In this document: one piece after another, positions 20,376 to 60,277 of the stretch
How the letters are laid out: each line of letters opens with the position of its first letter
How positions within the stretch are numbered: position 1 is the first letter of the stretch
Assembly (NCBI GenBank): GCA_051362555.1
Contig: JBPQGU010000016.1
Coordinates: forward strand, 2,790,001 to 2,854,000
Direction: 5' to 3'
Length of the DNA: 64,000 nt
From: Lingula anatina
Lineage: Eukaryota; Animalia; Brachiopoda
Notes under the pieces: generated by a model
What the model was told of the DNA's origin: nothing
The model's input: only the letters and a program-made list of their open reading frames with translations
Database searches by the model: none
Position numbers and translations under genes: made by a program

Positions 20376-20432
20376 ATTTTTTCTTTTTCACCTTTCCTTC
20401 TTTTTTTATATATTTTATAAATATTAATATAT

Positions 20433-20486: not shown

Positions 20487-20591
20487 CTATGTCTATATTA
20501 TCTTTTTATATATTTTCCATACAAAAAAAAATTTAAAAAAAAAAAAAAAAAATAAAATAAAATAAAATAAAAAATAAAAATATTTTTTAAA

Positions 20592-20622
20592 AAAAAGAGC
20601 AAAAAAGTTTTTTGCTCTTTTA
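20592..20622. terminator. Palindromic hairpin after OTC copy 2
   Basis: AAAAGAGCAAAAAA-G-TTTTTTGCTCTTTT. Confidence 0.75.
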
Positions 20623-20646
20623 ATGTTTTTTTAAAAATAAAACAAA

Positions 20647-23512: not shown

Positions 23513-23604
23513 ATCTAAATATTTTATATTTAAATCAATTATTAAAATTTTTATTTATATATTTAATATATTTGATATATATAAAAAAAAGAAAGGTTAA
23601 AAAA

Positions 23605-23605
23605 A

Positions 23606-23658
<53 letters not shown>

Positions 23659-24558: not shown

Positions 24559-24590
24559 TAAAATAAAAAAATTATTATAATTAATTTATT

Positions 24591-26441: not shown

Positions 26442-26504
26442 ATTACTAATTAATAAATAAATAAATAAATAAAAATATTAAATTAAAACTAAAATAATAT
26501 TTCT

Positions 26505-26648
26505 TTATCTATTTTTTTCTATTATTTGTTTTAATTTATTAATTCTTTTTTCTATTTTTTTAAATTTCAAACAAGAATGACATCATAATTCTTCATTTAA
26601 ATATTTTTTTTATTCTTTACAGATATCACAAATATTTTCTTTCATCAT
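26505..26648 (-). pseudogene. Small CxxC...CxxC zinc-finger/coiled-coil gene with an in-frame TAA
   Basis: AAGGAG RBS; MMKENICDICKE*KKYLNEELWCHSCLKF... Confidence 0.55.
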
Positions 26649-26998
26649 TTAATACTCCTTTAACAAAAAAATTATAATATTTTTTTTATTAATTATTAAT
26701 AATATTTACTAATTTTTTTTGATAAATTATTATTTATTGTTTTTAATAATTAATTATTACCAAAAAATTATTTTATAAAATATTTTGTATATAATTTTTT
26801 TAAATAAAAAATATTAAATTAATTATTAAAAATAAAATCATAGATAAATATAATTAAATATATTATTAAAATATTATTTATAAAAAAAAAAAAAAAAAAT
26901 TAAATATAAAAAACAAATATATTACATATTTTATTAAAAAATAAATTTATTGAATCAATAAAAAAATAAAATTAAAAATAATAGGAGTTAATAAAAAA

Positions 26999-27217
26999 AT
27001 GAATTTAATTGAAAAAATAAAAAATGGTTTTTATTCTTTTAAAAAAGAAACTGTTAAAGAATTTGAAACAATACTTGATAATAATGCACATGGTTATTAT
27101 GTAAATATTAGAAACATAAAAAAATTAAAAGATGGTTCTTTTTCAATCAGTATAAAATTTGAAAAAATTAATGAAAATAATAATTTTGAAATATCAAAAA
27201 AAGAAAATAATTTATAA
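26999..27217 (+). CDS. Small hypothetical protein (candidate antitoxin)
   Basis: Strong AGGAG RBS; 72 aa; upstream of the Fic/Doc gene. Confidence 0.65.
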   Translation: MNLIEKIKNGFYSFKKETVKEFETILDNNAHGYYVNIRNIKKLKDGSFSISIKFEKINENNNFEISKKENNL

Positions 27218-27403
27218 AAAAATAATTTGAAAAGAAAAAATTTATTAAATTTAATAATTTATTTGTTAATTAAATAAAAAATTAAATTTAAATATGAAAA
27301 TATAAAAAATATTATTCAAAAAATAAAAGAATAATTATAATTATTTTATTAGAATATATGACATATAATCTATTAATTAAATTTAATTAATACAAAAAAA
27401 TAA

Positions 27404-27931
27404 ATGAATAATACTATATTTATATTTAACATTCAAGATTTAAAAATTATACAAAATTTAAAAATAATAAATTCCAAAACAAAAATTTTAATTTTAAAAA
27501 AAAATGAAAAAAATTTTAATAAAATTTTTAAAATTATTAAAATTTCACTTAAATATTTACAAAAAAATTATAAACTATTTAATTGAAAAGAACCAATTGG
27601 TTTTGAAATTAATGATGGAAGTATAGAAAGTATGATGCATTCTTTATATTTATTAACACAACATGAAAATGTAACAATTTTTGATTTATTAATACAAATT
27701 TTTATAAGAATAATAGGTACACATTATATAAGTAATGGTAATAAAAGATTTGGAATATTTGTTCTTAAAAAATTATCAATAGAATTGGGTTTTTATATTA
27801 AAGAAAATAATATAAAAGAAATTAAATATTGAACAATAAAATTAAAAAATAAAAAAAATTATTCAAAAATAAATTCAAAAGAACATAAAGAAATTTTAAA
27901 TTGATATTTAAATAAATTAACAATTTTCTAA
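27404..27931 (+). CDS. Fic/Doc-family protein
   Basis: HYISNGNKR matches the Fic/Doc HxFx(D/N)GNKR motif; one frame with TGA=Trp. Confidence 0.8.
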
Positions 27932-28222
27932 TTTTTTCATCAAATCCATAAAATTTTTATCATTTAATAAAATTTTATTAATTTTATTGTTTTTATATTT
28001 TGCAAATGGTTTAATTCTTTTATCTTTAGTTATTTTGTATTTCATTTTTTTTAAATAATAAACAAATTAAATTATATTACAAAATAAATTTTTAAATAAT
28101 ATTTTAAAAAATCCAAATTAATACTTTACTAAATAATTTGTTTTTATTACAATTTTATAAATTTTTGATTTTTTGATTTTTTGATTCTTATTTTATTAAT
28201 TAAATGTTTTATATTCTTTTAA

Positions 28223-28579
28223 TTATTGATTTTTATATTTAATTATTTTTAAAATATTTTTAATTTGAACATCATCAAAATATTTTATTCTTTTTTCTAT
28301 TTCATTAAAATTATCTTTTTTATATATTGTAAAACCATTTGGTGGTAAAAACATTGTATTAAAATTAGAAATTGGAAAAATTACTTCTAATTCATAAATA
28401 TTATTTTTTTCTAATTTAAATTCATTTATATTATTAAATTGTACATTAAATCCTCAATCAATAACTTTAAAAATAACACCTGCATGTTGATCATAAACTT
28501 TAATTCTAATTGGTTTATTATTTTTAATTTCATTTCAAAAAAAATATTTAAATTTTTCTATTTTTTCTATTAAATTCAT
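28223..28579 (-). CDS. Hypothetical protein
   Basis: 118-codon frame with AGGA upstream. Confidence 0.55.
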
Positions 28580-28718
28580 TTTTTAAGTATTTCTATCCTA
28601 TATATCTTTAATTTTTATGTTTATATAAATATTTATAAAAACAAATAAAAAAATATTTATATAAATTTATTATCTTTTATTTTTTATAAAATTATAATAA
28701 ATATATAAAAATTTTAAA

Positions 28719-29126
28719 ATGTGAGAATTAATAAATACAATTTTAATTTCAATACAATTATTTTGATTAAACTTTAATATTAAAGAATCAAAAATAATTA
28801 AATTATTTAAAATAAAAAATAAATTAGAAATTAAAAGAAATAATATTTTTAATAAATGTAAAAATTGTCAAAAAAAACATAACAAAATAAGAGATTTGAT
28901 TGATGAAATATATAAAAGAAATAATTATTATTTATCTGGACTTTGTAATAATCATGAGATTCCAGTAAGTGAAGAGGAAACTTTTGAACTTTTTATTCCA
29001 AAAGAAAAGAAAGTATTTAATTTATTAAAAAGTGGACATAAATTTCTTTGTAAAAAACATGAAAATATTAATATAAAAATAAAAAATATTAAAGAAAATA
29101 TTTCTTTTTTAGAAAAAATAACTTAA
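28719..29126 (+). CDS. Hypothetical protein with CxxC/CxxH motifs
   Basis: CKNC, CNNH, CKKH; 135 aa. Confidence 0.55.
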
Positions 29127-29135
29127 AAAATATAT

Positions 29136-29504
29136 TTAATTTTCTTTTTTATTTTTAAAAATATATTTTCAAAATAAAAAAAAACACAAAAAAGACAAAA
29201 TCACACAAACAAAAATTAAGACAATAAAAATAATAATTTGTCATCATTCATAAACTGGATTTTTAAATGAAATTGTTGATACAACAATATAAACAATTGT
29301 AGTTAAACCAATATAAATAAAAAATAAAAAAGAATGAAATCTTAAATATATTTTTGATCTTTCATCAACTTCTTCAATTTTTAATTTATTTTTATTAATA
29401 TTTTCTTGATCAGTATTATTAATTTTTGATTTAGCAACAAGTCAAGTTTGATCTTGATCATAATCAAAATCTAATAATTTATCTTTTTTTTCTTTTTTAT
29501 TCAT
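29136..29504 (-). CDS. Two-TM membrane protein
   Basis: Charged N-terminus followed by two hydrophobic helices; 122 aa. Confidence 0.65.
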
Positions 29505-29508
29505 TTTA

Positions 29509-29647
29509 AAATAAAGATACAATGTTTTTTATAAATTTTGCAGAACAAATAGAAAATAGTGAAAATAATATGTTTTTAAATCAAAAAACAATAAATAATT
29601 TTAAAATCATTTTTATAAAAATAATTGAAAATAAAGATTTGAAATAA
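29509..29647 (+). repeat. 139-bp direct repeat, copy 2 (orphan 3' end of an OLD-like gene)
   Basis: Match to 26303-26441, including the stop codon. Confidence 0.9.
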
Positions 29648-29648
29648 T

Positions 29649-30557
29649 TTATTTAAAATCAAAAATTATATAAAAATCAAAAATTTTTGAAATTTCACAA
29701 TTAAGAAAGAATTTGAAATTAATAAATATTTTTTTATAAACATTTTTATTTAATATTTCAATATGATTATTTATTGAAAATATTTTTTCATAAAAAAGTA
29801 AAAATATTTCTTTAATTTCTTTTTCATTTTTATATTCACACATTAAACTTTCTAAATTTAAAATATTTATCAATAAATATTTATCAATATCTTCTTTATT
29901 TTTATGTTTGTCAACTTTTTTTTCAATAGATTTTAAAATATGTTTTAAGAAATTAACTTTTTCCAAGTAAGTTTCAGTTGTTTTTTTAAATTCTAATTTT
30001 ATATTTTTAAAATCTCTATTTTTAATAAGTTGTAAAAATCTTTTTTTATAAAGATTTACATCTGTTAATTCTATAAAAAGATTATCATTAATTTTAAAAT
30101 CAATTTGATTTTGTAAATTACCATCATCATTTAAAATACAATTAATTTTCTTATCATAAAAAGAATTATAAAATTTTTCAAAATCTTTTACTTTTATTTT
30201 TTCAATATTTTTTTTATGACTTTTGTTTTTAGTATTTATTTTTTTATTTTCTATTTTTTTATTTAATAATAAAATAATAAATATTTTATTATTAAAATCT
30301 TTTTTATTAATAGATTTTTTTCAAATACTTTTTATTTCTTTTTCTATTTGTTTTTTATCAATATTAATTTTATTTATTGTTTTATTTAAAAAAAAATTAC
30401 AAAAATCATAAATTAATTTATTTAATTTTTTTTCTTCTAATATTTTTTTAATTTCATCAATATATCTAAAATTTTTATAACCATAATTATATTCAACATA
30501 AAAATTGAATTCAAAATGATTTTTATTTAATATTTGATAATATTTTTCTATTTTCAT
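29649..30557 (-). CDS. Hypothetical protein downstream of OLD-like gene 2
   Basis: Two track ORFs in one frame joined by TGA; about 302 aa. Confidence 0.6.
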
Positions 30558-30573
30558 GATTTTATTTTTTTAA

Positions 30574-32439
30574 TTAAAAATTTTTTATTTTATATATTAT
30601 TTTATCAAATAATTTCTTAAAATTTGAAATTGTTTGATCATTTAATTTTATTTGGTTACTTTCTATTGCTTTTATATAATTAAAAACAAAAGAAACTTTT
30701 TTAATTAATTCTTTATTTATAAGATTTATTTTTTTATTTTGAAATTCTTCATTTACAAATAAATTATAAATATCAGCATTTTCTTGATTTTCTTTTTTTT
30801 CTATTAAAATAGTATTTTCTTTACAAATAATTTTTTTTTCTTTTTTAAAGTATTTTTCAAATGCTTCACCATCATCAAAAATAAATAATGGTTTTTTATC
30901 ATTAAAATTAATAAGTATATCTATTTTTATTTGTGAACTACATATACCTTTCGTAAATACAAAAAATATATTATTCAAAATTAACTTTTCTTCATCATTA
31001 AATTTATCTAATAAAATCTTTTTTATTGTTTTTAAAATCATAAATTCTGAATAACCTTCAACAAAAATTAAATATTTGTTTTTTAAATTATGTGTAAATT
31101 CTTTATCAATTCCAATTTTTGAAAGTATTGGTAATAATCCATCATTTTCATCACGTCTTTTATTATGAGTAAAAATTTCTGAATATATTTGAGAATTATT
31201 ATTTAAATTCTCTATATAATGAATATCTTTTAAATTATCATCATCTATAAAATACGGATTATGTGTTGTAATTAATAAATAAACATTTTTATTTTCTTTT
31301 ATTAAATTTTTAAATTCATCTTTTAATTTTAAAACTAAATTTACATGTAATGATCTATCAGGTTCATCTATTAAAAATAAAAATATTTGATCTTTATTAT
31401 TTATATATAAATTTTCTTTTTCTTTTATAAAATGTATTAAATTACTATATGTTGCATTTCCACTACTTACAAAATTAATTGATAATTCTTTTTTAGAATT
31501 AAAATTATTTTTTAAATAAAAATGAAATCCAAGATGAGTAATTTTTAAATTTATTAAATCTTCTTTTTTTTGTTTATTTAAAAATGAATTAATTTTATTT
31601 TCTATTTCTTTTTTTTCTATTTCAAATCTATAACTTCAACATATATCTGGATCATTAAAATTATTTTTTAATATTTTTAATTCTTCATTTGTAAATATTT
31701 CATTACTTTTTAAAATTTTAAAAATACTACTTTTTGTAAAAACATTAAAACTATAAAATGATTTTAAATTTTTCGAATTATCTTTAAAATTAAAATTAAA
31801 CTTTTCAATTGGTTTTAAAAAATTTATATTTAAATTATGAATAAAAAAATCATAAAAAATATTAACAATATCTTTTCTTCTTATACTTTCATTAAAAAAA
31901 TTTAAACTTCTAAATGAATAATAAAAATATTCTTCTGTAAAATTTTCAAATTTTATTTTTTGTTGTTGACGTTTATAAATTATACTTGGAGTAAATAATT
32001 TAAAAATCTCATTTATTTCAATATTTACAATTGCAAAAAAATTTAATTCATTTTCTGGTTTTATAAAAATAAATAAATTCTTAATTTTATTTTTTTTTAA
32101 TATTTTTAATTTTTCTTCATATTTTTCTTTATCTTTTCCAAATAAAGAAAAATTTTTTAATAAATATTCTAAATCTTGTGTTGTAAAAATAATCACAAAA
32201 AAATTACGATTAGTTATTTCTTTTTCAAAAAAATTAGAAAACATAAATCTGCGTGATATTATGTTTGAATTTGTTTTTATATTATCTAATTCATCATTTT
32301 TTAAATATCTTTCTAATAATTCTAAAAATTGTGTTTTTCCTGATCCATTTAAACCTAAAAATATGTGATTTTGTTTTTCTAAGTTAAAATAAAATTCTGT
32401 ATCAACAAAACAAGATAAATTTTTAATTTTAATAATCAT
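30574..32439 (-). CDS. OLD-family ABC ATPase-TOPRIM protein 2
   Basis: GLNGSGKT, VSSG, LIDEPDRSLH, ITTHNPY, IFVEGYSE, FIFDD. Confidence 0.85.
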
Positions 32440-33063: not shown

Positions 33064-35649
33064 TTAATGACCAAATATCAATTGTAAAAATTCATATTTT
33101 TCTCTAATTTTTGCTAATGCTTTTGAAGCAATTTCTGTTAATTTAACTTGTCTATCTACAATTTCAGCATCATCTTGAGTTGAAATTTGACTTAAAAGAT
33201 CATCATTATTATCATCTAAAATATTATCAATCATTGCTTTTTTTTGAACATTATTATAATATGTGGTATCCATTTTAGCTCATTCTGCAATATATTTTCA
33301 ATTAATTTTATTTATTATTGATGCATTAGTTTTAATATCAACAGGTCTATAAAGAGTGTTTGTTCATTGGTAAACTAAATTGTAAATTTTTATTGCAACT
33401 TGAAATAAATCAAAATCTTCAACTTTTTTATTTAATTCTTCATTTTCTTTAAACAATGAAATTTTTTCATCAATTTTTTCTTTTGCTTTTGTTGCTATTA
33501 ATTTTAAATTAGCTCTATCAGCATTAATAATATCAAAAATAGTAGTATCTCATGTTATTATTTGATCAATTAAAGTTTGAATTGCACCAATATAAAATGT
33601 TTCATCTTTTTTAGCTCATTTTGCAATAGATTGTCATTTAGCTTTATTAGCAACAGTTGCAGTATTTAAAGTAGATGTATCAGTAGCATCTTTTCATTGT
33701 TTAGCTAAATCTCAAGCATTTTCTAATACTTGAAAATCATCTTCTCATTTTGCATCATCACCTTTTAGTCCTTGTGGTAATATTCTATTAATTTCTAATT
33801 TAACTGTATTAATTATAGTGTTAAGGTTTATTTTTTCATCATCTTGTAAATCACCAGTTGTTTGTGAAATTAATTTATTAATAAGAACTTTTATAGAATC
33901 ATTTGTATTTGCATTAGTATATATTGATAATGTTTTTGCAAAATCACCAAATTTTTTATAATCTGCTTTGTTTGTATCAGTAATTGTAATATTTTGACTA
34001 GTATCAATTGTATTTACAAATGTTCTAAGATCTACTATTTCATTAAAATAATTTATAGCAGCTGTTTTTATTTGTTCTGGTGTAGCATCATTACCTCTTT
34101 CACCTTGAGGTAATATTCTATTAATTTCTACTTTAATTTTTTCAATTATAATGTTAAATTCCCTTTTGTTCTCAGAATTAGATAAATCTACACCATCTCC
34201 ATCTCTTAATCATTCAGAAATACTTTCTAAATTACTAATATTTTTTATTGATTGTATAGTTAATGCAAATAATCCAACTTTTTTTCATGCATTTTTATTA
34301 TATTCATTAATAACAGTATTATCATCAACAGTATTTATTAATTCTCTAATAGCAACTAAATTACTAATATATTTTAAAACTTGTTCATATACTTTATCAT
34401 CAGTTGCACCTTGTGGTAATATTTTATTAATTTCTGCTTTAACTGTATTAATTATATTTTGTACTTGTAATATTTCATTTTGAAAATTAATATCTTGACC
34501 AGTATAAAATTTATCAACTACAATTCTTGTTGAATCACTTTGTGATGCACCTGTATAAATGGATAATTTTTTAGCAAATTCAGCAAGTTTTTTAAATTCT
34601 AATTTATTTGAATTATCAATAGTAATATCTTCACCAGCATTTAATTTTGTTTGAATAGTATTTATTAATGTTTTAATACTTACTATTTCATTAAAATAAT
34701 TTATAGCAGCTGTTTTTATTTGTTCATCACTTGCAGGAACACCGTCATTACCTCTTAAACCTTGTGGTAATATTTTATTAATTTCTGTTTTAACTGTATT
34801 AATTATAGTTTGAAGATTTGTTTTTTCATCATCTGTTAAATCTCCATTTGTTTGTGCAATTAATTTATCAATAAGAACTTTTACAGTATCATTTTCATTT
34901 GCACTAGTATATATTGATAATTCTTTTGCAAACTCACCAAGTTTTTTATAATTTTCTTTATTTGTATTAGAAATTGTAATAGTTTGACTAGTATCAATTA
35001 TATTTACAAATGTTCTAAGATCTACTATTTCATTAAAATAAGCTATAGCAGCTGTTTTTATTTGTTCTACAGTTGGAGCTGGTCCTTGTTCACCTGTATC
35101 ACCTTTTTCACCTTTAGCACCTGGAGCACCATTTTGTCCTGCTGGTCCTCTAAATCTTGTTCTAGCTGCATCTGTTCCCATGTATGTTGTAACAGCTGAT
35201 TCTACTTGTGCATCAGTTGCATCTTGACCAGCATCACCTGTATCACCTTTTTCACCTTTAGCGCCTGCTGGTCCTGTTGCACCTCTTGGTCCTGTTGGTC
35301 CTCTATCACCTGTGTCACCTTTAACACCTTGGGGTCCTGCTGGTCCTCTATCACCTGTGTCACCTTTAGGTCCTTGTGGTCCTGGTTCACCTTTTGGTCC
35401 TTGTGGTCCAACTTTAGAAGCAGCTTCTTCTATATTTTTTACTGTTTCTTTTGTTGAAGTTTTTGATTCTTCTAAAGATGATATTGATTCTTCTTTTTCT
35501 ACTTTTGATTTATATGAATTATTTACTGATACAACTCCAATCATACCAACTGTTGTACCAATAGCTACAACACCTAAAACTAATAATCCTTTTTCAAATA
35601 TAGATGAAGTTTTAATTTCATCTTTTAATTCACTTAAATATCTTTTCAT
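33064..35649 (-). CDS. Large membrane-anchored collagen-like surface protein with about 105-aa helical repeats
   Basis: N-terminal TM; Gly-X-Y blocks of 21 and 8 triplets; repeats EQIKTAAI...EINKILPQG; 861 aa with TGA=Trp; AGGAG RBS. Confidence 0.9.
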
Positions 35650-36792: not shown

Positions 36793-37743
36793 TTATGGTG
36801 TACGTACAAAATTAGCTACTGTTGTTTGAAGAGAAGTAACTGTTCTGTCAAGATCTGTAACTGTACTTTCAAGACGGTTAATTGTATTTTGTTGATTGCT
36901 AACTGTATTTTTAAGAGTATTTATTTCAGTATTTAAGTTTTCTATTTGTGTTCTCAGTTCTGGAACAGTAACATCTAAAGCTGTTGTTTGTGCTGGTGTT
37001 AAAGTTGCATCAGCACCTGCTGGTCCTGTTGCACCTCTTGGTCCTGCTGGTCCTCTATCACCTGTGTCACCTGTGTCACCTTTGTTTCCTTGTGGTCCTG
37101 CGGGTCCTGCGGGTCCTTGAGGTCCTCTTGGTCCTTCTGGTCCTTGTGGTCCTCTTTCACCTCTTTGTCCTTCTTCTCCAGCAAATCCTCGAATACCTTG
37201 TTCACCTCTGTCACCTTTAGCACCTTTAGGTCCTGCTGGTCCTCTTTCACCTTGGATGCCTTGTGCACCTCTTTCACCTTGTAAACCTGTTGGCCCTCTT
37301 AAACCTTGGATACCTTGTGCACCTCTTTCACCCTGTTGTCCTTTTTGTCCTACTGGTCCTCTTTCACCTGGATCACCTTTAGGTCCTTGTGGTCCTACTG
37401 GTCCTCTTTCACCTCTTGGTCCGGGTGGTCCATGTGGTCCTTCTGGTCCAGTATCACCTTTTTCGCCTTTGTCACCTTTTTCACCTTTAGGACCTTGTTG
37501 TCGATCTTTAGAAGCAGCTTCTTCTATATTTTTTACTGTTTCTTTTGTTGAAATTTTTGATTCTTCTAAAGATGATATTGATTCTTCTTTTTCTGTTTTT
37601 GATTTTTCAGAATTATTTACTGATACAACACCAATCATAGCAGCTGTTGTACCAATAGCAACAACACCTAAAACTAACAACCCTTTTTGTAGTAAAGAAG
37701 CTGTTTTAATTTCATCTTTTAATTCTTTAAAATAATTATTCAT
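36793..37743 (-). CDS. Membrane-anchored collagen-like protein with a C-terminal coiled coil
   Basis: N-terminal TM; 54 uninterrupted Gly-X-Y triplets; heptad-rich tail. Confidence 0.92.
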
Positions 37744-44489: not shown

Positions 44490-46070
44490 TTATTTTTTAG
44501 ATTTTCAAAAGAAAAAAATACTTAATAAAAAATTTAAAATTATTGTAATATATGTAATAATTTTTTCATAAGTAAAAAAATTTGGTTCAATTTTTACATT
44601 AAAATTTAATTGTTTTTCCACTCATTCTTTTGTTTTTATTGAAGTATTAGAAAAAATATAATAATCTAATTCAAATAATTTAAAAAAACCATAAATTAAT
44701 AAAAAAATTAAAATAGGTAATACTAAAAAATTTAAAATTTTTCTTAATCAATCAAATTTAGTTGTTTTTATATAACTAAATTTTTCATTATAATGTAATA
44801 TTTTTTTATAATCTTTATAATTTATAAGTACAAATATTTCATAACAGCCAATCAATAATATAAATTGATTAATTCAAACATCTTGTACATCAACCATTTT
44901 CTTTTGATTTAAAAATATAAAAAACAAATAATGTATTAATGCTCAAAAAGATCAAAATAAAAGACCTTTTTTTCTAGTTGTTTTTTTAAAAAAATAAACA
45001 TTTGAATCAACAAAAACTTCTATTGCAAATAAAATAGATGAAAAAGATGCAAATAACAAACTTATTATTAAAAATACAAACAAAATATGTCCTAAAATTT
45101 TTGATTGCATATTATAAAATAATTTAGGCAATTCAATAAAAATTATTGATGAACCACCAGCTGTTTCTTTTTTAAAAAATAAATCTAATTTATTTAAAAT
45201 TTCTTTTTCAGATAAATAAATAGAAAAATCATTTACAACAATTGTAGTAATCAAAATACAACTTAAAATAGCAACAAAGGTATCAATAAAAATCATAAAT
45301 AATATATCATTAGTTTTATCTTTTTTTATATTTGAATTTTTACTTAAAACAAAATGGATGCCATAAAAAATTGCAGTTGAAAACATAGCTTGAATAGTAG
45401 CTTTTTTTCAAACATTAAAATTTATAAAAGATTTTGTATCAAATTTAAATAATTTTATAATTGCATACTTAGAATTTTTTTGTAATAGACCATAAATTGT
45501 TAAAAAAATTAATAATAAAAATAAAATAGGAACTAAAATTTTATTTGTTTTTTCCAAACCTTTTTTAATACCTAAAGAAATGATAAAAAAAATTAAAAAT
45601 AATAAAATTATAAATCCTATTAATGTTAAATATGAAAAATTAAAAATATTTTCATTACTTGGTAACTGTAAAATGTTTTTTTCAAAAAAATTACTATTTA
45701 ATGCTCAATTTTTAAAATTATATTTACTAAAAGAAAAAAACATACTAATAAAAATTCAAGAAATAATTACTAAATAATAAATACATGAAAATAATGAAAA
45801 TATAACTTGTATTCAACCAAATAAAAATCCTCTATTTTTATCAACTTTAAAAAAACATACAATAACATTTTTTTTAAAAAATAAACCATATTGAAATTCC
45901 AATAATATTATTGGAAAAACAATTAAAAACAAAACAATAATATAAATTAAAATAAATGATGAACCACCAGAAGTTATAACTTCTTTTGGAAACCTTCAAA
46001 TACTACCTAATCCTATAAGTGCACCAACACTTGATATTAAAAAACCAAATCTTGAAAATTTATTTTTCAT
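44490..46070 (-). CDS. NSS/SNF-family sodium-dependent transporter 1 (divergent)
   Basis: FSRFGFLISSVGALIGLGSIWRFP...GGSSFILIY; GLEKTNKILVP. Confidence 0.88.
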
Positions 46071-46093: not shown

Positions 46094-47296
46094 TTAAATA
46101 AAATTCAATACTTCTCTTAAAATCATTTCTTCTTCATCTGTTTTAATTATTAAAATTTGAATTTTTGATTCTGGTTTTGTTAAATAAAAATAATTACTTT
46201 TACTATCTTTTTTTAACATAATTCAATTTTTATTTAAATCAAAATTTAAAAGAAAAAGTCTTTTTAAAATACTTTTAACTATATAAGAACTGTTTTGTCC
46301 TATTCCTCCAGTAAAAACTAAATATTTTAATTTACCTTCTAAATCATTTGTATATTGAACAATATAATTTGCAACTGCTTTTGAATATAAATCTAATGAT
46401 AATTTTGCTCTTTTATTTCCATTATTTGAAGCTTTTTCAATATCTCTAATATCTGATGAAATACCTGAAACAGCTAATAATCCTGATTTATTATTTAAAA
46501 TTTTTAATATATCATCTAAACTTAAATTTGTTTTAGAATTAATATATTTAAATATCATTGGATCAACTTTGCCACAACGTGTTGACATAATAAATCCAGA
46601 AATTGCACTAAAATCAAATGTATTATTTACACTTATACTATCTTTTATTTCTGAAATACTTGAACCATTTCCTAAATGACAAACAATAGCATTAATTTTT
46701 TCACTTTTACATTTTGAAATATTTTTTAATTCATTTAAAACATATTGATAACTTATTCCATGAAAACCATATTTTTGAACTCCATATTCTTCATATCATT
46801 TTCATGGTAATGGTAAAACTTTATTAATTAATGGTATATTTTTATGAAATGATGTATCAAAAACTAAAATATTTTTTATATTTTTTATATTTTTTTTTGT
46901 AGCTTTTAATACTTTTAAACTAGCATCTATATGTAATGGTGCTAATGGAATTAATTTTTTTAAATCACAAATAATTTGTTCATTTAATAAACAAGAATCT
47001 AAATATTTTCTTCCTCCATGAACAATTCTGTGTCCTACTGCTTTAATATCATTAAATTTTTTTATAATTTTATTTTCTTTTAATAAAGTAAAAAGAAAAT
47101 TAATTGCAATTTCATGATTATAAAACTTTTTATAAATTATTTTTTTTGTATTTTTAAAATAAAAAATACAATTACCATCAATACCTATTTTTTCTAAAAG
47201 TCCATTACAAACAACATAAAATTTATCATCTTTTAGATGATAAAGTTTAAATTTTATTGAACTTGAACCTGCATTTAAAATTAAAATTAATTTCAT
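46094..47296 (-). CDS. ackA: Acetate kinase
   Basis: NAGSSS, GHRIVHGG, FDTSFH, YGFHG, HLGNG, TRCG, FTGGIG, TDEE. Confidence 0.95.
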
Positions 47297-47319: not shown

Positions 47320-48027
47320 TTATTGATAAATATCTAATATATTTTTATTTAAAAATATATTAATAAAAACTTTATATACAACAAATGTATTAAAAAATAA
47401 AAATGGAATAGATTTTAATCTTACTAAAATTTGTTGTAAAAAGTCAAGGTTTAATTTGATTTTTAACTCTAATGGTGTTATTAATAAATAAAAAAAATAA
47501 TTTAAAAAAAATAAAGAAAAAATTATAAAAAATATTAAAAAATTATAATTTTTTAAATAAATAAAAAAAATATAAAAAAATATAAAAAATAACAAATAAA
47601 TCATTGAAATAAAAATAAAAATATAATTAAAATTTGAAATTATAAAATTATTTTTTTTATAAAAATAATTTATAAAAAATAATATAGATAAAAATATTAA
47701 AAGATAAACTAATATATAAAAAATAACAAATAAAAATTTTTTAATATTTTTTTTATAATAAATAAAACATTTAAATAAACAACCAATTAAAATCATAAAT
47801 AATCTTTGAAAAACAATTATTGAAATACCCAATCCACGTCATCAAAAACTAATATCAACAACTATTCCAACTAATAAACCATAAAATGGACCTAATAAAA
47901 AACCAGATATAAAAAATAATATATTTTCAACTTTAAAATAAATCAAAACATGTATTAAAACAATAAAAAAAGAAGACAAAATAATTTTCTTTAATTTTTT
48001 GTTAATAAAAAATCTATAATTTAGCAT
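47320..48027 (-). CDS. Membrane protein resembling an ECF transporter S component
   Basis: ISGFLLGPFYGLLVGIVVDI fits the S-component G-x-x-x-GP-x-x-G...D pattern; about 6 TM. Confidence 0.65.
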
Positions 48028-48033
48028 AAAAAT

Positions 48034-48708
48034 TTAAAGTTTTATTAAAAGAAAAATGAACAAAAATACTAACAAAGAAATCATAAACACTTTTGATAGA
48101 ATTTTTAATTTTGCTTCTTTTAAATTTACCTCATAATCAATAAATGGTTTTGGATTAATATTTTTTTTAATAATTTTATTAATACTTTTTTTAAAAACTA
48201 AATCTAACAAATTACAAATATTAAAGTCATTTAATATATTTTTTTTACAATATTTAATTTTTAATTCATCTGCAAATTCTAAAATAGAAATTGCAGATGA
48301 ACTTGAAAATGCTAATCTTAAAAGAAAAAAAGAATCTATTAATTTAAAATTAAAAATTTTTATTTTATAAAACTTACATTTTTTATATAAAAAATTATAA
48401 AAAAATCTAATTTGATTTCCTATAATTAAATAATCTTTACAAAAATTTAAAATAAAATTATAAGCATTTTTAAAATCTAATTCTTGAGATTTTTCAATAT
48501 TAAAAATACCTTGTTTTTTATATTCTGTTACATCATAAGAGTTTTCTAATTTAAAATCTATTTTTTTATAAATAATTTCATTATTATTTATTTTTTTAAA
48601 ATATATTCTATAAATTTCTGAACTAGATAAAACTCTAAAATCAACTATAATATATTTTTTAATGTTTTTTTCTTGTTTTATTTTATTTAAAATTTTTAAA
48701 TAATTCAT
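48034..48708 (-). CDS. Degenerate DEDDh/DnaQ-like exonuclease-fold protein with a C-terminal TM
   Basis: YIIVDFR, IIGNQIRFFYNFL and KLIDSF echo the Exo motifs, but most catalytic residues are missing. Confidence 0.55.
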   Translation of the reverse strand: MNYLKILNKIKQEKNIKKYIIVDFRVLSSSEIYRIYFKKINNNEIIYKKIDFKLENSYDVTEYKKQGIFNIEKSQELDFKNAYNFILNFCKDYLIIGNQIRFFYNFLYKKCKFYKIKIFNFKLIDSFFLLRLAFSSSSAISILEFADELKIKYCKKNILNDFNICNLLDLVFKKSINKIIKKNINPKPFIDYEVNLKEAKLKILSKVFMISLLVFLFIFLLIKL

Positions 48709-48731: not shown

Positions 48732-50510
48732 TTAATTACTTAATTTTTTTACAATATCAATCAAAATATCTTGCATTGTATTTTTGTATTTTAAAAGATC
48801 TTTTGCATATTTTTTTCAAGATGTAAAAAATGCAATAATTTTATTTTCTTTTATTGAATATGCAATTGTAAATCCATCATTTTGAACAGGTCAAAATACA
48901 AATGATGTAAGTGTTTTATAACTCATATTTGAAGTTGACATTCTTTGTTTTGTAAAAAGTTTATAAAAATCTGTATCTATAATTGGTAAAACATTATGAT
49001 CATTATTTTTAAATTCTTTATTTTGTAACTTTAAAGCTAATAAATGTCTTTCAATACCACTTCCATTTTTACAATCTAAAACTTTTTTATAATGACTATT
49101 TTCAACATCTTTTAAATATTTTAAAATTTCATCTTTATTTTTAAATTTAATATTAAAATATTTATTATAAAACTTTATTATTGCATTTGATAATGGTCTT
49201 AAACATTCAGTTCTACCCATAAAAAATTTTCTTAAATCAACTGATTCATATGTTGAATAAAAATTATTAAATACTTTTTTTTGTGCTAATTGACCACATA
49301 ATTGAAAAAAACCATCTATAGATTTAATACCAATTTTTTTTAATTTATCTTTTCCAAAATCAATAATAAAATGTTCAAAAGCACATTCATTACATTTTTT
49401 TTTATAATTGATAAAATGTTTTTCTAATATTTTTTCTTCTTCTTTTAATAATTTAAAATCTAATAATTTAAAATCTAATAATTTATCATTTTTTGAATTA
49501 TTTTTTAAATTATTTAACATTGTATCCATATAATTTAACAAATATAAAAGTGTTCCACCATCAAAATATGTATGTTCCATAGTAATTGGACAATGTATTG
49601 TATTGTTTATACCAATATTTAAAGATTTGGAAAATCATCTATTCAAATTATTTTTTGAATCACCATTATAAGTTTTTTTAACTGCATCAAATTCATTTTC
49701 AACCTTTTGTGTATCAAAACAAAAAACAAAAATAGATTCTTTTAATTTTTTAATTAATTCAAAATTTCTTTTAAATATTTTTCTTTGTAATAAATAATCT
49801 TTTTTTCTATTTTTAGATAATTCAATATAATTTAATTTTGTTATATTTTTATCTTTAAAATTTTTAATTATTTCTCTTATTGTTTTTTCAATTGATTTTA
49901 TTGAACTTACTTTGTTATTTTTAATAATTTCTAAATTATAAAAAGCATTTTTATATGCAAAAATAATATTTGTTGATAAATCATCATTAATAATATATTT
50001 ATCAATTTTTTTTCCCATTATTCTATAACTTGCAAGCAATCCATGTAATTGATCTAATGAAATTTTATTATTTTTAATTTCAAAAAATTCAAATTTTTTA
50101 GGATTTTTTTTAAAATCTAAATAAAATTTTGAAATTGATCAAATAATAAAAGCAGATTTTTCAAAAATATCCATATTCTTTATTTTTTCATTACCTCAAC
50201 ATATTCCAGCACCAACAGATAAAACAGAATCATTAATATTTAAATACAAATCTCATCAATAATTTATTAAATAACTACTATTTTTATTTTCAAATTTTTT
50301 TAATAAATATTTTTGTGATTTTTTTATATAAGAAGAGTTCTTAAATTTTAATATTTCAGATTCTAAAATTTTTAAATCCAAATTATTTACTTTAAAAAAT
50401 GGAGTTAATCATTCTAATACTCTTTTAGATGTAACATCTAATGTTGGAACAGGTAAATTAGGTATTTTATTTTTATTTAATATTTTTTTTGAATATAAAA
50501 TGTTTGACAT
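48732..50510 (-). CDS. Choline/carnitine O-acyltransferase family protein, carnitine-type signature
   Basis: LPNLPVPTL, catalytic EHTYFDG, TYESVDLRKFFMGRTE, GIERHL, MSTSN; 592 aa. Confidence 0.93.
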
Positions 50511-50514: not shown

Positions 50515-51495
50515 TTAATCAAATGTTTGGCTTAAAGTTATCAATGCAGTATTGAAAACCTCATCTTCATTTGCTCCTCTTGAAAGATCATTTACTGGTA
50601 AATTTAAACCATAAAGTATTGGTCCTATTGATTTACAATTACAAAAATGTTGTGCAATTTTATATCCAATATTTGCAGAATTTAAATCTGGAAATATAAA
50701 AATATTAGCAGATTTTTTAAATGTTTCTATATTATTAAATTTTTTATTTCTAATATTTTCATCAAATGCTGCATCAAATTGTATTTCACCTATAATTTTT
50801 ACATTCAAATCATTTATTTTATTTTTTAAAATTTCTGTTGCATCTTTAACTTTTTTTGTATGTTCATTTAATCCACCACTTCAATTTGTAGAAAAAGATA
50901 ACATTGCAACTTTTTTTTCATCATTATTAATTTTTTTTGAAAAATTAATTGTATTCATTGCAATATCTGCTAATTGTTTTGAATTTGGTTCAATATTTAA
51001 TGCACAATCTGCAAAAAAATAAACATTTTCATCTTTTATCATTATCATAGTACTACTTGAAAAATCAATATTTTCTTTAGTTTTAATAATTTTAAATGCT
51101 GGTATTAAAATATCTTTTGTAGAATAATTAATACCACCTAACAAACAATCTGCATATCCTTTTTTAAGTAAAATCATTGAAAAATAATTTGTTTTTCTTA
51201 CTAATTCTTTTATAATTTTTTTAGATATTTTATTTTTTGTATAAGAAATTAGTAATTCTTCCATTTCTTCAAATTCTTTCAATAAAATATTATTTAATAC
51301 AATTTTTTCAATATCTTTATTTAAATTATTAGGAATTTCATTTTCATTTTCAAAAACTAAAATACATTTTGATAAATTTAAATTTGTAATTCTATTTGCA
51401 ACATTTTGAATAATAATATTTTTTCCTTCTGGAAATAAAATCTTTTTTTTCTTATTTTCTTTTATTTTTTTAATAATTTTTTCAATAAAGTCCAT
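50515..51495 (-). CDS. pta: Phosphate acetyltransferase
   Basis: LFPEG, FADCALN, GEIQFDAA, FPDLNSANIGYK, PVNDLSRG; AAGGAG RBS. Confidence 0.96.
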
Positions 51496-51537: not shown

Positions 51538-53694
51538 TTAAAATTTTTTTAAATATTCTTTATAATTAACAAGCTTACAAATAATTTTTTTAGAATCTGT
51601 TTTTTCATAATATAAAACAAGTTTTTTTGATTTTGCTAATTTTAAAGCTTCTTCTTTACTCATTTTTCCTAAAAACTTACCTTTTTCATCAATTACTTCA
51701 AAAGTAGAAAATGGTATATCATCATTAAACATTTTTATAATTTTACTTTTTTTATATTTATGTTTTAAATAAAATAATAAAATTGATAAAAATATTAATT
51801 TTACAATTAATATTCAAGCAAAAATAAGTTCTAAATCAGTTTTTATTTTTTTAGATGTAATATATTTTTCACCCACTTTACCTCAATAAATACCTTCACT
51901 AAAAGTACCTTTAAATATTAAAATTAAAAATATTATTGTTATTAAAATTCATAAAGAAATAAATACAAATTTATATTTTAAATGTTTTGAATTTTTACTT
52001 TCAAAAACATATTCTTTTTTCTTAATATTATTTTTTATATTTAAAAAATTATCTTTATTAAAATCTTTTCTATTTTGAATAATAGATTTAAACATTGCAA
52101 TTATTTGTAAATAAATAATCAACAAATATGGTGCACCCATAAATACTGCAAAATCTCTAATTGCTATCATAATCTTTGAACTATCACCACCAATTAATTT
52201 ATATGCAATTGCTAATAATGTAATTGAAATACCTCATATAAAAATTGAAATTCTTCATGGTTTTTCTTCACCTTTTTTTGAAACAATTGATGCAACAGAA
52301 ATTGAAGCTGATGTTCCAGTTGTAGCAACAAAAGTTACAAAAACAATTAATGAAATAACAGATAAAATTTTAAAAAATGGAAACTTAGATAATAATTTAA
52401 AAAATGCACCATTTACTGAATAAGTTTTAGCAACAATATTATAAACATCTGAATCACCATTAAATAAATTAAAAAATGAAAAACCACCAAAAACACTAAA
52501 TCATAAAGCCATAAATACTGCAGGAACAATTACACTTGCAAGACAAAATTGTCTAAAAGTTCTACCCTTTGAAATACGTGCTAAAAACACACCCATAAAT
52601 GGTGTTCATGATATTCATCATAAAATATATGCACTTGGTCAATCATTCAATCACTTTGATCATGATGTATCTAATGGATAAGAATTAAAATGTCTTGTAA
52701 TTGAACTTGGTAAGCTTCCAATTGATTCAATAGATTGATTAATAAAAAACTTTGTTGGTCCTACTAAAAAAATAAATGCAAAAATAACTAATGCAATATA
52801 TATTGTAATATTTCCTAATTTTGCCATCCCTTTCTTTAATGGAGTTATACTTGCAATTATAAAAACAAATGCAATTATAGCAATAAATATTAAAGAAGTT
52901 GCTTTAATTCATTTTGGATCAATTTTTCCATCAAAAAATGCAATACTTAATGATTCTGTCATATTTCCACCAGCAATTGCAACTGATGCTGCAACTGTAA
53001 AAACTGCTGTTATACCAGCTAAACAATTTGCAAATATTCCAATATATCTAAATATTTTAGATTTTCCAAATCCTTTTTCTATAACAGAACCAGGTTGAAA
53101 TGTTGCATTATATTTTTTGTTAAAAACAAATCAAGCAATTACTAATCCAGAAATAGTATATATGCACATTGCAGGTATACCTCAATCTCAAACTGAAAGA
53201 GAAATTGATTCTTTTATTGCATTACTAGCATTACTAATTTGATCAGAATTTAATCCACTTATTCCACTTTTTATTACTGGTGCTAATTTTTCTTTTAATG
53301 GTGAAAATTCAACATGAAATATTGGTTCTGCAACACCAAATGTTAAAGTACCAACACCAACACCAGCTGTAAACAACATAGTTAATCAAGTAAATGTTGA
53401 ATATTCTGGTTTTGTATCACCAATTCGTTTACTTCCATATTTAGTGAAAATAAAAAAACAAATAATTATCAAAAATATAAATGGTGTAATTAAAAAAAAT
53501 CAAGTAAATTTCTCAGATACAAATGTTTTACTTTTACTAATAGTTTTTGCAAATGTATCTGGAATACTAATTGCAATAGCAGATAAAAGTAAAATAAAAA
53601 ATGAAGATATAAAAAATCCTCAACTATTATTTTTTAAAAAAAGAGAAATACTTTTTTTATTTTTAATACTATTTATTATTAAAAATTTTTTCAT
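51538..53694 (-). CDS. BCCT-family (betaine/carnitine/choline) transporter fused to two extra TMs and a C-terminal IF3-N-like domain
   Basis: [46 protein letters not shown]; no TAA/TAG in frame between 52170 and 51540; 718 aa. Confidence 0.9.
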
Positions 53695-53880: not shown

Positions 53881-55557
53881 CTAAAAAATACTTATTTTTG
53901 AATCTGGATTTGAAATATTTATTAAAGCACCAAATACAATTAAAACTAAACATATAATAAATAATATAATTAATAATTTATAAATTGATTTTAAAAATTT
54001 AACATAACTTATTTTACAAAATGATGTTGAAACCATTACTGCAGCATATGTTGGAGCAAATAAATTTCCTAAACCAATTCCCATTGTATATGCAGTTATT
54101 GAACCTGCTAAACAATGATTTTGAGTTATTCCTTCTGCTTTTTCAATTTCATAAATTGAAGGACCTAAAAGTGGAAAAATAGCTTTTGCTAATCCAGATG
54201 TAGATGGAATAAGTAATGAAACTGGAATTGTAAGTATATATATCAAAATTGGAACTGTAAATCTTTTATCACCAGAGCTTTTTTTTACATTATCAATAAT
54301 TCCATTAATAAACAAATATTTTAAATTTGTTGCTTCAAACAAAACAGAAATACCACTTGCAAATCCAATACATAAAACAGCTGGAATCATTTTCTTACAA
54401 CCAGTTGTAAAGTTTTCTACAACATCATCTCAAGAAAATCTTGCAATTTTTGCAATAATTACAGTACAAAACAAAAATCAAACTGATAATGCAGTTAAAT
54501 TTCAAGAACCAAATTGAAATTTTGAACCATTTTTCATTCTTGAATTTACACCAGAATTGTTAAATCAAGAAGTTGATGGATTATTATTAAAAGTAACATT
54601 TTCAACAGTTTGAAATGTATTAGTTTGTGCAATCTTATCATATGGAATAACTAAAAATAACATTAAAACAAATGAAAAAATAAAAACTAGTGTTATTATT
54701 AAATTTCTTTTTATATTACCACTTACCTTTTCCATAGATTCAACATCAAATTCACTTTTATAATATTCAAATTTATCTTTAAAATATGAATTTGATTTAT
54801 TTTTTTTAACTCTATATGAATAAATCATTACACATAAACATGCAGTAATAAACATAACAATTCATATAACTCATCTTCAAGCCATACCATCAGATATTGA
54901 GATATTTTCTTTTAAATTTGAATAACTTTCAATAGATGAATTTGATATATCAGTTGCAATTATTGTTGCAAATGGATTTACTGTTGAACCAATAACACCA
55001 GAACCAGCACCAATAAAAACAACTAAAAATGAACTTCAAATATCAAAACCGGCTGCTAAAAATACTGGAACAACAAATGCATACAATGGTAATGAAGATG
55101 TTCCCATACCATTAAATGTTCCATTTAAACTTAAAAACAACATAATTGGTATAACAACTCATGTTGTTTTAAACATATTTTTACATTCTATTCATATTTT
55201 TTTTATAAAATTTGTTTCAAAATTTCTTTCTATTTCTAAATTAAATTTAATTTTTTTTAGAAAATTTAAAACAATTGAATTCATTGCTTTTGTTTTTATT
55301 GTTACAAACATAAATGAACCAAAAATAAACAAAAAAACAGAAATACCTACTGAATTATAAAGACCAACTGGAATTGTTGATATCCATTGTAAAATACCAG
55401 CACCATAAATATTTATTTTTTCATTTTTTTCATTTGTGGTTGTTACATTTTGTCAAGATAATATTAAACTTAAAATACCAAAAAAACAAATTCCAATAAA
55501 CAATAATATTAATGTATTTGGTAGTTTAAACCTTCTTTTTTTTAATAAACTTTTCAT
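53881..55557 (-). CDS. YfcC/ArcD-family transporter, second paralogue
   Basis: FKLPNTL start, AGSGVIGSTVNPF, IPSTSGLA; AAAGGAG RBS. Confidence 0.9.
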
Positions 55558-55675: not shown

Positions 55676-56566
55676 TTAATATATTTTATTTTTTTTAATA
55701 AATTTTTTATTATTATAAACTATTTCTTCAGGAATTTCAATTGGTAAAATATTTGTTTCAGGAATAAAATAATAATCTTCTTCAACATTTTTTTTTGTTA
55801 AAATAATTATTTTTTTTGATTTTTGATCATATTTTTTAATTATTAAAAGATTAAAAATTCCTCTTTTTAAATATTCTTTTTGATCTTCATATTCTAAATT
55901 AATAAAATGTAAAATATCTTCTATTTTATTTAAATGTTTAATATAAATAGTATTTTTTGATTTTAAATCATTTGTAAAAAAATCTAATTTTATTGAAATT
56001 TTTATATTTTTATCTAAAAAATCAGATTTAATAATTTTAGCTTTTTTTAATTTTAAAATAAAATCATTTAAAAAATATTTAATATCAATTGGATAATCAA
56101 AATCTGATTTTGTAACTATTTTAATTATTGCAATACCTGATCTATTATAATCAACATACAAACTATCATCCAAAAATTTAGAATCTGCAACATCTTCTTC
56201 TAAAACAATTGAATCAATATTTATTTCTTTTTCTTCTTTATTTTCTTTTAAAAATTTAAAATTACCACCAATTGCAAATGGTTTCAAATATTGTGTAATT
56301 TTAAAACCTTTTGGTAAATCATGATAAAAATAATTTTTTCTATCAAAATATAATTTTTTACTAATTTTTGAATTTAATAAAAGTGCTAATCTAACTGCTA
56401 ATTCAACAGCTTTTTTATTTAAAGTTGGCATTGAACCTGGTATTCCAATGTCATCAATACTTACATTTTCATTATATTTTGAATTAATGTTATTTTTTGA
56501 TGTTGAAAATAATTTTGTTTTAACATCCATTTGTATATTTAATTTTAATCCGATTTTAACTTTCAT
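55676..56566 (-). CDS. gatB: Truncated, degenerate GatB (N-terminal domain only)
   Basis: FDRKNYFYHDLPKG, LEED and DYNRSG recognisable; 296 aa; GLEVH replaced by GLKLN. Confidence 0.85.
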   Translation of the reverse strand: MKVKIGLKLNIQMDVKTKLFSTSKNNINSKYNENVSIDDIGIPGSMPTLNKKAVELAVRLALLLNSKISKKLYFDRKNYFYHDLPKGFKITQYLKPFAIGGNFKFLKENKEEKEINIDSIVLEEDVADSKFLDDSLYVDYNRSGIAIIKIVTKSDFDYPIDIKYFLNDFILKLKKAKIIKSDFLDKNIKISIKLDFFTNDLKSKNTIYIKHLNKIEDILHFINLEYEDQKEYLKRGIFNLLIIKKYDQKSKKIIILTKKNVEEDYYFIPETNILPIEIPEEIVYNNKKFIKKNKIY

Positions 56567-58600: not shown

Positions 58601-60277
58601 TTATTCTTCGATATTTTCAATATGATATTTCTTTTTATATCAAAGAATTGAAACTGTTCAAACAATAATTGGTATTCAAAACATCAATGTTAAAACTACT
58701 CATTGAGTTGTTGAAACTTCAGATAATTTGCTACCATTATATTCAGAAATTGTTGAATATAAACTTGAACAACATACAAACAAAATTGCAAAAAATGAAC
58801 AAACTATCAAACCATAAAACAAATTCTTATTTCATTTAATTTTTGCTTTCTTGTTGTTAAATTCTATAATTTCATTACATGATTTTCTGTTTGTTGCAAA
58901 CATAAGCGCTTGTTGTAATGATAAAAATAGTAGTAATCACATCATTCATCCATCAATTGTTAAGGTATACATTGCATCAACATTTGAATTAAATACAAAA
59001 AATATACCAAAGAAGAATTGAATTAAAATTGTAACTAATGATCCATATTTTCTTTGCATTCCAGTGTTTTCATATAAAACACTTGTTCCTGTTTCAACCT
59101 CTCCAATTAATGATGATAAACCAGCAAAAACTGCTGATAAAAAGAAAAATGCACCTAAAATGTTTCCTATAATTTTAACATTCATTCTTTCACCAATTCC
59201 TTTAAAGAAAACAGGAAAAGTTTTAAAAATTAGTTTTGAACCACCAATATCTTTGTCATATATTTTTCCATCTGTTTCAAATATTGCAAAACTTTTTCAA
59301 TCTTCTACTACTCTTGAAACACCACTTTCAAATACATCATTTTCATTATGTGTTTTTAAAACAGTACCAAGTTTATATTCTTTTTCACCAATTTGCAAAC
59401 CACTTTTCATCATTCCTCCAATTGTTGCAGCAATAATGAAACCACCTAATAATGCAATTAATGTGTCACCACAAACAATTATAAATGCTTGTGTTGTGTT
59501 ATCTCTTTCTTTGGGAGCTTTTGATGAATAAATCATAATAATAGCTGAAACCAAAGATAAAGAAAATATTGATTTTCCAAATGCAGAACCTCAAGCTTTA
59601 AAATCACTTAATTTTGTTAAATCTGGTTTAAAAACTGCTTCAATTCCTAAATCATATCCATCAATTGTAAATGAATATACAAAAAAAGCAATTAATAATA
59701 AAAACAGAATAGGAATCATAATTTTACATGCTAATTCAACACCTTTTTTAATTCCTCTGTTAACAATTATTCATAATGATACAAAAACAACAAGAACAAC
59801 AAATAATGTTCAAAAAGATGCACCACCATGTGACATGTTTGTTGGATCCACATTTTTTATTTCTTTTCCTGTTATATTTAAAACATTTTGATCCATAAAT
59901 TTAAAATTATTACCAAATTCTGATGAAAATGAACTAAAAAACATTATTAATATTCAAGCTACAACTCAAACATAATATGTACCAATAATAAATTGACCTA
60001 TTGCTTGCACTAAACCAAATGCAGGTCCTGTTCTTTTTCAATATTTTTTATATGCAATTACTGGAGAAGTTCTCCATTTATTTCCAAGTGTTGATTCCAA
60101 TACAAAAAATGGAATACCTAACACAAATAAAGAAATAACATATGGTATTAAAAATGCCACCCCACCATATGAAATTAATGATGTAGGAAATAATCATAAA
60201 TTCCCTAAACCTACAGCAGAACCAAGTGTTGCAAGTATAAAACCAACATTAGAAAAATTTTTGGATTTACTTTTCAT
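58601..60277 (-). CDS. NSS/SNF-family sodium-dependent transporter 2
   Basis: GFILATLGSAVGLGNLWLFP...GGVAFLIPY; FAGLSS. Confidence 0.93.

Follow-up and report, generated by a model that had tools for sequence, protein, structure and literature searches.

Genomic setting and reading frame

We analyzed a 64,000-nucleotide stretch of DNA, hereafter the window. Its GC content was 19.8%, its open frames were clean under genetic code table 4, and its genes included those for ribosomal proteins, an arginine deiminase cluster and transporters. On the basis of these three features, the source of the window was likely a Mollicutes (mycoplasma-type) bacterium. It was also likely host-associated, since the sequencing runs with window DNA carry a species label under which poly(A) RNA-seq runs are deposited as well. 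The gene of interest (51538..53694, minus strand) encodes a fusion of a BCCT transporter, two extra membrane helices and an N-domain of initiation factor IF3, as assigned by the table 4 frame, Pfam and structure models. It is followed on the same strand by closely spaced genes in the order BCCT fusion, pta, carnitine acyltransferase, two ORFs and ackA, with gaps of 42, 4, 23, 6 and 23 bp. A gene for a YfcC/DcuC-family antiporter lies just upstream of the fusion gene (53881-55557, minus strand), and two genes of the sodium:neurotransmitter symporter family flank the cluster (44490-46070 and 58601-60277, both minus strand), the first of them 23 bp after ackA.

From 53694 to 51538 the fusion gene was a single frame of 718 codons under table 4, 19 of which were TGA. 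Reading TGA as Trp was supported by W359, W360 and W363 of the product, which aligned to the Trp motif in TM8 of solved BCCTs. The original prediction, made from the DNA sequence, that with TGA read as Trp the BCCT frame runs through two additional membrane helices without a stop was borne out over the full 718 codons. The stretch of 116 codons from the BCCT domain to the IF3 domain was open in none of 5000 base shuffles. Both the fusion frame and its three-part anatomy (BCCT, two helices, IF3 N-domain) are confirmed.

The transporter and the extra helices

Residues 27-538 (52081..53616, minus strand) form the BCCT transport domain. The PF02028 scan that had been proposed along with the original prediction gave 336 bits, far above the cut-off of 27 (E 4e-100; model positions 2-482 of 485). 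PDB matches of this part were TmaT, BetT and BetP, the best Foldseek matches were BetP and TmaT (TM-score 0.84-0.90 by target), and an alignment-based model showed a BCCT fold with a mean pLDDT of 83.9 in the core. Residues W359, W360, W363, W171 and Y179, which we take to be the aromatic box for trimethylammonium groups (TM4/TM8), were all present, and one Trp of TM4 was replaced by Met176. The G-x-G-x-G motif in TM3 (G111-G115) together with T458/T459 suggests Na+ coupling, if, as we assume, the BetP rule holds that this motif with TM10 hydroxyls marks it. BetP of Corynebacterium glutamicum (PDB 2wit, 4ain) shares the TM3 motif, the TM8 Trp motif and two TM10 hydroxyl residues with the fusion protein and differs from it at Met176 and in the Asp of TM10, which is missing here. 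Scores against named NCBIfam subfamilies were all below their cut-offs: 225 of 695 bits for BetT, 174 of 541 for CaiT, 279 of 650 for the betaine BCCT equivalog and 263 of 408 for TIGR00842. By its profile scores the protein is thus a BCCT, but not of the BetT, CaiT or BetP type by cut-off or tail anatomy. At codon 176 (window position 53169) Met was found in the window protein and in its nearest homologue, P0002, and Trp in all 28 other BCCT rows shown. The Asp at codon 461 was absent from all rows P0001-P0024 and present in P0025-P0030. The TM4 Met and the missing TM10 Asp may be clade marks of substrate or coupling.

Two further hydrophobic segments, each also helical in the model, follow the transport domain. 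Extra helix 13 (residues 576-594, 51913..51969, minus strand) comes after a basic loop with 11 K/R that would lie inside, and extra helix 14 (residues 623-641, 51772..51828, minus strand) would bring the chain back to the cytoplasm. There were 5 K/R between helices 13 and 14, and a basic run after helix 14. From the 12+2 helices and the positive-inside rule applied to this charge pattern, we infer that the IF3 tail would be cytoplasmic. In the alignment-based model, the extra helices were weak and residues 647-660 disordered, with no confident packing.

The IF3 N-domain

The last part of the protein, residues 655-718 (51541..51732, minus strand), is a copy of the IF3 N-domain that is colinear with residues 14-77 of Escherichia coli IF3 and ends before the inter-domain linker, as supported by Pfam, PDB, model and fold matches. 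PF05198 (IF3_N; cut-off 26.9 bits) matched residues 657-715 at 43 bits (E 5.2e-11; model positions 2-60 of 70) within the whole protein, and at 49.3 bits (E 5.6e-13) when the 64-residue piece was scanned alone. The PDB sequence matches of the last 64 residues were the IF3 N-domains 6o6d, 1tif and 5me0, aligned with no gaps. With PF05198 scores of 43-49 bits and these gapless alignments, the earlier identification of an IF3 N-domain was correct. A single-sequence AlphaFold2 model placed residues 665-717 in a strand-strand-helix-strand-strand-helix block with pLDDT 59-86; the mean for the whole model was 44.6, and it was unreliable outside the IF3 part. The structure check proposed earlier also agreed, in that a fold search of 48,161 chains returned IF3 as its three best matches (Z 7.5-7.7, rmsd 2.3, 62-63 residues). 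Z scores below 8 are weak alone, yet these agree with the sequence matches; the fourth match (Z 7.3) concerned another part of the model.

When 1.84 billion representatives were searched with the C-terminal 180 residues, 12 proteins were found, 11 of which were IF3s or pieces of IF3 and one a chance match to a repeat protein. No transporter was among the 12, helices 13 and 14 had no match of their own, and Pfam IF3_N was present in the four of the 11 IF3 matches that were scanned. The tail was 53% identical over 60 residues to P0122, the nearest full IF3. Core positions of IF3 were kept (N657, I660, G672, L675-G676, E682-A683-L684, A687, C706 and Y711), while E. coli R25, Q33, D52 and Y75 corresponded to E666, F674, V693 and K716, and R66 to K707. 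Among the 11 nearest IF3s, which had been picked by likeness to the query tail, the position of D52 was Asp in all, R25 was kept in two and Q33 in none, and two had Lys at position 75. The tail was also basic, with 15 K/R compared with 7-11 in these 11 N-domains, and the usual Pro before the last strand of the domain was missing from it. Its 64 codons had neither stop nor indel in a window of 20% GC.

These profile matches classify the tail as a true PF05198 domain and the fusion protein as something other than an IF3. TIGR00168 (infC) matched the tail by its N-part alone, at 31-37 bits against a cut-off of 60. As stated in the original prediction, the window holds no IF3 C-domain (PF00707 in six frames of the 64 kb) and neither rpmI nor rplT (L35, L20) among the ORFs listed or scanned; the stop codon comes directly after residue 718, and the next gene is pta. 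The usual gene order is infC-rpmI-rplT. To our knowledge, the IF3 N-domain is known from IF3 itself. Compared with IF3 (infC; PF05198 plus PF00707; PDB 1tif, 6o6d, 8jsg), the tail has the N-domain sequence and fold in common and differs in having no linker and no C-domain, in its membrane anchor, in the R25, Q33, D52 and Y75 positions and in its place away from rpmI-rplT.

We considered whether the two parts might not be one protein in the cell, either because the IF3 piece is a separate 64-residue product starting at the ATG at 51732 or because the fusion is an assembly error. This ATG is present and opens a clean ORF even under table 11, and separate translation from it had been suggested in the original prediction. 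Its Met, two residues ahead of the conserved Asn, falls on an internal position of IF3 that is normally hydrophobic, where P0123 also has Met and other IF3s have Leu or Ile, and there is no stop between the two parts. A Shine-Dalgarno core was absent here and present at 19 of 35 real starts in the window; its lack is weak evidence, since the other 16 starts do without one. Separate translation is therefore not favored, given the internal position of the Met and the missing core. With regard to the assembly, an A7 run lies in the junction, and three more lie inside the 64 IF3 codons. A contig of another sample (X2, from the same study as the possible source) matched 51716-51855 with no differences and no gaps; this interval includes helix 14, the junction A7 run and 17 bases counted from the ATG. 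X2 contigs also matched 51826-51884 and 51952-52500 without difference, and a contig from another study (X4) matched 51957-52500. The link from helix 14 to the ATG has thus been seen twice, reaching 17 bases into the IF3 domain, where independent contig support ends; the body of the domain rests on the window assembly. Positions 51541-51715 and 51885-51951 had no cover by contigs of this organism, a gap that carries no evidential weight. Taken together, a separate product or an assembly error is unlikely.

Relatives and origin of the fusion

The original prediction had proposed a check for the same fusion in relatives and named its absence from all of them as a refutation; among the relatives searched, none had it. 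A search with the whole protein gave 194 matches among 7998 candidates, and all 120 homologues listed carried PF02028 only; the IF3 domain was in none of these 120, and no tail among them scored more than 3.1 bits on an IF3N profile of our own. (On this profile the window tail itself reaches 84.7 bits, which is circular.) Among proteins of 394-1257 residues, none of 80 candidates matched residues 645-718 in a word-based search, a method of low sensitivity. In the nearest homologue, P0002 (696 residues, 53% identity), there are three additional hydrophobic segments, and IF3_N is absent from its 37-residue tail. That this tail is a decayed IF3 domain was rejected, as it scored 0.2 bits on the IF3 profile and its likeness to the window protein was within reach of shuffled sequences: 107 of 2000 shuffles equalled that of the last helix with the tail, and 872 of 2000 that of the soluble ends. 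Likeness between the two helical tails was weak (66 of 2000).

In a quick tree built from 43 of the 120 homologues, the window protein and four locus proteins (48 rows, tails trimmed), the window protein and P0002 were sisters (SH-aLRT 100) inside a clade of 27 rows (SH-aLRT 100). Since P0002 lacks the IF3 domain, either the window lineage would have gained the fusion after it parted from that of P0002, or P0002 would have lost it, gain being the simpler. The other 26 rows of the clade had no IF3 domain either, so transport does not need it. The comparison behind this absence covered relatives other than the close Mollicutes ones: samples of 201 genomes from the phylum and of 101 and 21 from classes contained no genome below 1.2 Mb and no TGA-bearing match among the rows listed. 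A scan of genome contigs (13 of 64 parts; best 80 of 579 loci) found no match past query residue 578; it used Trp-rich patterns, so that TGA-coded genes were probably missed. Metagenome scans with the BCCT alignment, a viral scan and plasmid tblastn gave no match. In the open literature, with most subscription papers outside the search, we found no report of an IF3 N-domain fused to a transporter or of a truncated infC paralogue.

Possible roles of the tail

According to PMC9723500, initiator tRNA is contacted by R25, Q33 and R66 of IF3, fidelity depends on Y75 and the linker, the C-domain is both required for growth and enough to support it, and the N-domain alone makes minimal contact with the 30S subunit. 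Because the R25, Q33, D52 and Y75 positions are changed and the tail stops before the linker, a role of the tail in translation initiation appears unlikely. The changes at R25, Q33 and Y75 need not mean a new role, as the nearest IF3s vary there too. One could still imagine that the domain binds RNA (30S platform or initiator tRNA) and ties ribosomes or the translation state to the transporter. It would then be a transporter control domain coupling translation state to acetylcarnitine import, and at the extreme the N-half of a membrane-anchored split IF3, with no other IF3 N-domain in the cell. Its fold is intact, R66 is kept as Lys, its surface is basic, and nine of the 11 nearest real IF3s also lack R25. 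On the other hand, with Glu in place of R25 the main tRNA contact has the opposite charge, there is no linker to couple the N-domain with the C-domain and the 30S subunit, and an N-domain on its own would touch the 30S minimally according to the source cited above. We would give RNA binding a small chance, and there is equally little to recommend the coupling of translation to import.

A second suggestion was that the domain docks downstream enzymes, that is, carnitine acyltransferase or Pta, at the transporter for substrate channelling. The genes are adjacent and probably co-transcribed (gaps of 42 and 4 bp), and the domain would face the cytoplasm. Nothing was found in its support, however: four other loci with a BCCT and an acyltransferase have no such tail, and binding of enzymes by IF3N was not found in the analyses or literature consulted. 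Docking would be the least probable of the roles considered.

The earlier statement that C-terminal tails of BCCTs are regulatory in BetP and BetT agrees with two reports. The BetT C-domain autoinhibits through contact with the next protomer (PMC11323884), and so does the BetP tail (bioRxiv 10.1101/2022.06.05.494857). BetT of Pseudomonas syringae (PDB 8ybq/8ybr; PMC11323884) resembles the fusion in joining a BCCT core to a folded alpha/beta cytoplasmic C-domain, and the tail described here could likewise touch a neighboring protomer. The BetT domain has 137 residues, is frataxin-like and follows TM12 after a 12-residue linker, whereas in the fusion two helices come first and then the IF3 N-domain. 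The regulatory tail of BetP is one long helix, compared with an IF3 fold after two helices in the window protein.

With this precedent, co-option of the IF3 domain as a sensor is possible. Our tentative preference is that a lineage-specific infC fragment was kept as a folded cytoplasmic cap, which may tune the transporter and not translation. An N-domain copy would have been captured from infC after the split from the P0002 lineage, selection would hold its fold, and contacts with lipid or a neighboring subunit, as in BetP and BetT, would let this basic folded cap steady or tune the transporter trimer. In favor of a cap, the copy spans the folded unit precisely (E. coli 14-77), breaks off at the start of the linker and folds without an alignment. 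Such boundaries, together with a core left intact while the surface drifted, would fit selection on the fold, without showing regulation. Against it, the tails of BetP and BetT follow TM12 directly and have other folds, and here two helices intervene. There is no second example (0 of 120 tails, 0 of 80 long candidates), and so no conservation that would speak for a function of the tail. Nearly as likely as a cap is a passenger tail: a 5' fragment of infC would have inserted in frame behind the transporter sequence and been tolerated without function. The fusion is in one genome only and P0002 ends otherwise; the roughly 13 codons joining helix 14 to the domain are a stretch found open in 762 of 5000 shuffles; and D52, invariant elsewhere, has been lost along with the Pro that usually precedes the last strand. 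The boundaries that match a folded domain and the intact hydrophobic core speak against a passenger, as do 64 codons free of stop or indel despite 20% GC, three A7 runs and changes at conserved sites. If the cap does tune transport, BCCT regulation would have a third solution next to the helix of BetP and the frataxin-like domain of BetT, and a core translation domain would have been reused in a reduced genome.

A putative acetylcarnitine pathway

The context of the fusion gene, a cluster with acyltransferase, pta and ackA that was left undeveloped in the original prediction, is better supported than any function of the tail. All of its genes are on the minus strand. The gene pta, for phosphate acetyltransferase (50515..51495; PF01515; NF007233 above and TIGR00651 just below the cut-off), begins 42 bp after the fusion gene. 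It is followed by a gene for an enzyme of the carnitine/choline acyltransferase family (48732..50510), identified by PF00755 (299.7 bits, cut-off 22.3; E 5.7e-89), PDB alignments and the motifs H313, TYES, GRTE, R488, STS and F537. Then come two ORFs without a Pfam family, one of 224 residues (48034..48708), which resembles a DnaQ-type exonuclease that has degenerated and gained a membrane helix at its C-terminus, and a hydrophobic one of 235 residues (47320..48027), which recalls, in our view, an ECF S component. The last gene is ackA, for acetate kinase (46094..47296; PF00871, E 5e-117). The fusion gene, pta and the acyltransferase gene are probably co-transcribed, as suggested by adjacency and the 42 and 4 bp gaps between them. 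Three terminator-like sites were found, none of them between the fusion gene and ackA, and a promoter scan was uninformative (111 found, 139.6 expected).

H313 of the acyltransferase aligned to the catalytic His of carnitine acetyltransferase (CrAT), and T434 and R488 also matched CrAT; the region scored E 4e-11 with CrAT and E 1e-4 with choline acetyltransferase. At the site of F537, CrAT 1ndb has Met and the 1t7n variant Gly. Motifs of the T434, R488 and F537 type may mark carnitine and short-chain specificity; no literature source for a carnitine-versus-choline rule was found. Eukaryotic CrAT (PDB 1ndb, 1nm8, 1t7n) shares with the window enzyme the catalytic His and the TYES, GRT, RH and STS motifs, and the bulky F537 also counts among the likenesses; the window enzyme differs in its low overall identity, its bacterial origin and its place in a cluster with a transporter, pta and ackA.

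The order of the cluster and the association of carnitine acyltransferases with this BCCT clade point to a likely route from acetylcarnitine to ATP, with substrate and direction read from gene context. The fusion transporter would import acetylcarnitine, and the acyltransferase would move the acetyl group from carnitine to CoA. Pta would then convert acetyl-CoA to acetyl-phosphate, and AckA acetyl-phosphate to acetate with formation of one ATP. The Pta-AckA chemistry is established. In this way, an acyltransferase between a BCCT and pta/ackA would give a host-associated bacterium one ATP per acetylcarnitine without redox steps, a gain that may be likened to the arginine deiminase route, also present in the window. 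In the open literature, with most subscription papers outside the search, we found no description of such a route; the only bacterial acylcarnitine use that came up was hydrolytic, as in PMC13631058. There, a BCCT of Acinetobacter baumannii or Pseudomonas aeruginosa imports short-chain acylcarnitines for a co-clustered cytoplasmic hydrolase (ACH/HocS). These bacteria hydrolyze the ester, whereas the transferase of the window would keep its energy as acetyl-CoA for Pta and AckA.

Carnitine acyltransferase loci in other genomes

PF00755 genes were found in 18 of 151 genomes of one order, in 2 of 121 of another phylum and in none of 101 in a class sample. In all four members of the BCCT clade with readable DNA, a PF00755 gene adjoined the BCCT gene or lay within 5 kb of it; this also holds for all three genomes with the nearest BCCTs in the contig scan. 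In 19 loci picked by PF00755 (two of them short contigs; 67 of 106 neighboring ORFs scanned), a BCCT adjoined the gene in one and an OpuAC binding protein in eight. Overall, a BCCT or OpuAC transporter adjoined the PF00755 gene in 12 of 22 loci of anaerobes (these 19 plus three picked by BCCT). The pairing may represent an undescribed acylcarnitine-using module of anaerobes. Neither pta nor ackA was near the PF00755 gene in any of these 22 other loci. Besides the window, PF00755 loci included L001, L002, L003, L128, L112-L116, L121, L122, L124 and L125. L125 had a CoA-transferase and an ATP-grasp acyl-CoA ligase in place of the BCCT or OpuAC transporter. The acyltransferases of L112-L116 had GRIE and lacked the Arg, which suggests that they use another acceptor, e.g. 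choline. A word-based protein search with the window acyltransferase gave no match among 7996 candidates, and as PF00755 homologues do exist this search was insensitive; a metagenome scan with it also gave no match. Of the two findings, the cluster is the more general and directly testable lead, while the fusion is real, odd and single.

Other features of the window

Several other features were observed, all but the last on the minus strand. A Cys-rich ORF of 38 residues (6004-6120) without a Pfam match lies between rpoC and the S10 operon and recalls, we presume, a metallothionein. In the arginine deiminase cluster (16244-21645), arcA stands between two ornithine carbamoyltransferase genes that are nearly identical, and a YfcC/DcuC-family antiporter is encoded as well; no carbamate kinase was found among the window ORFs scanned. 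Two paralogues (33064-35649 and 36793-37743) have near-identical N-termini and collagen-like repeats (PF01391), the longer one with internal repeats. GatB (55676-56566) has 296 residues, of which the catalytic domain alone was matched; the usual C-terminal part seems to be missing, and the short gene adjoins gatA and a gatC-like ORF without a Pfam match. Finally, the region 21856-32439 looks like a defence or variable island: it has a restriction-modification pair of DpnII type, two AAA_15 ATPases, one on each strand, a number of orphan ORFs and, at 23605, a long poly-Asn run.
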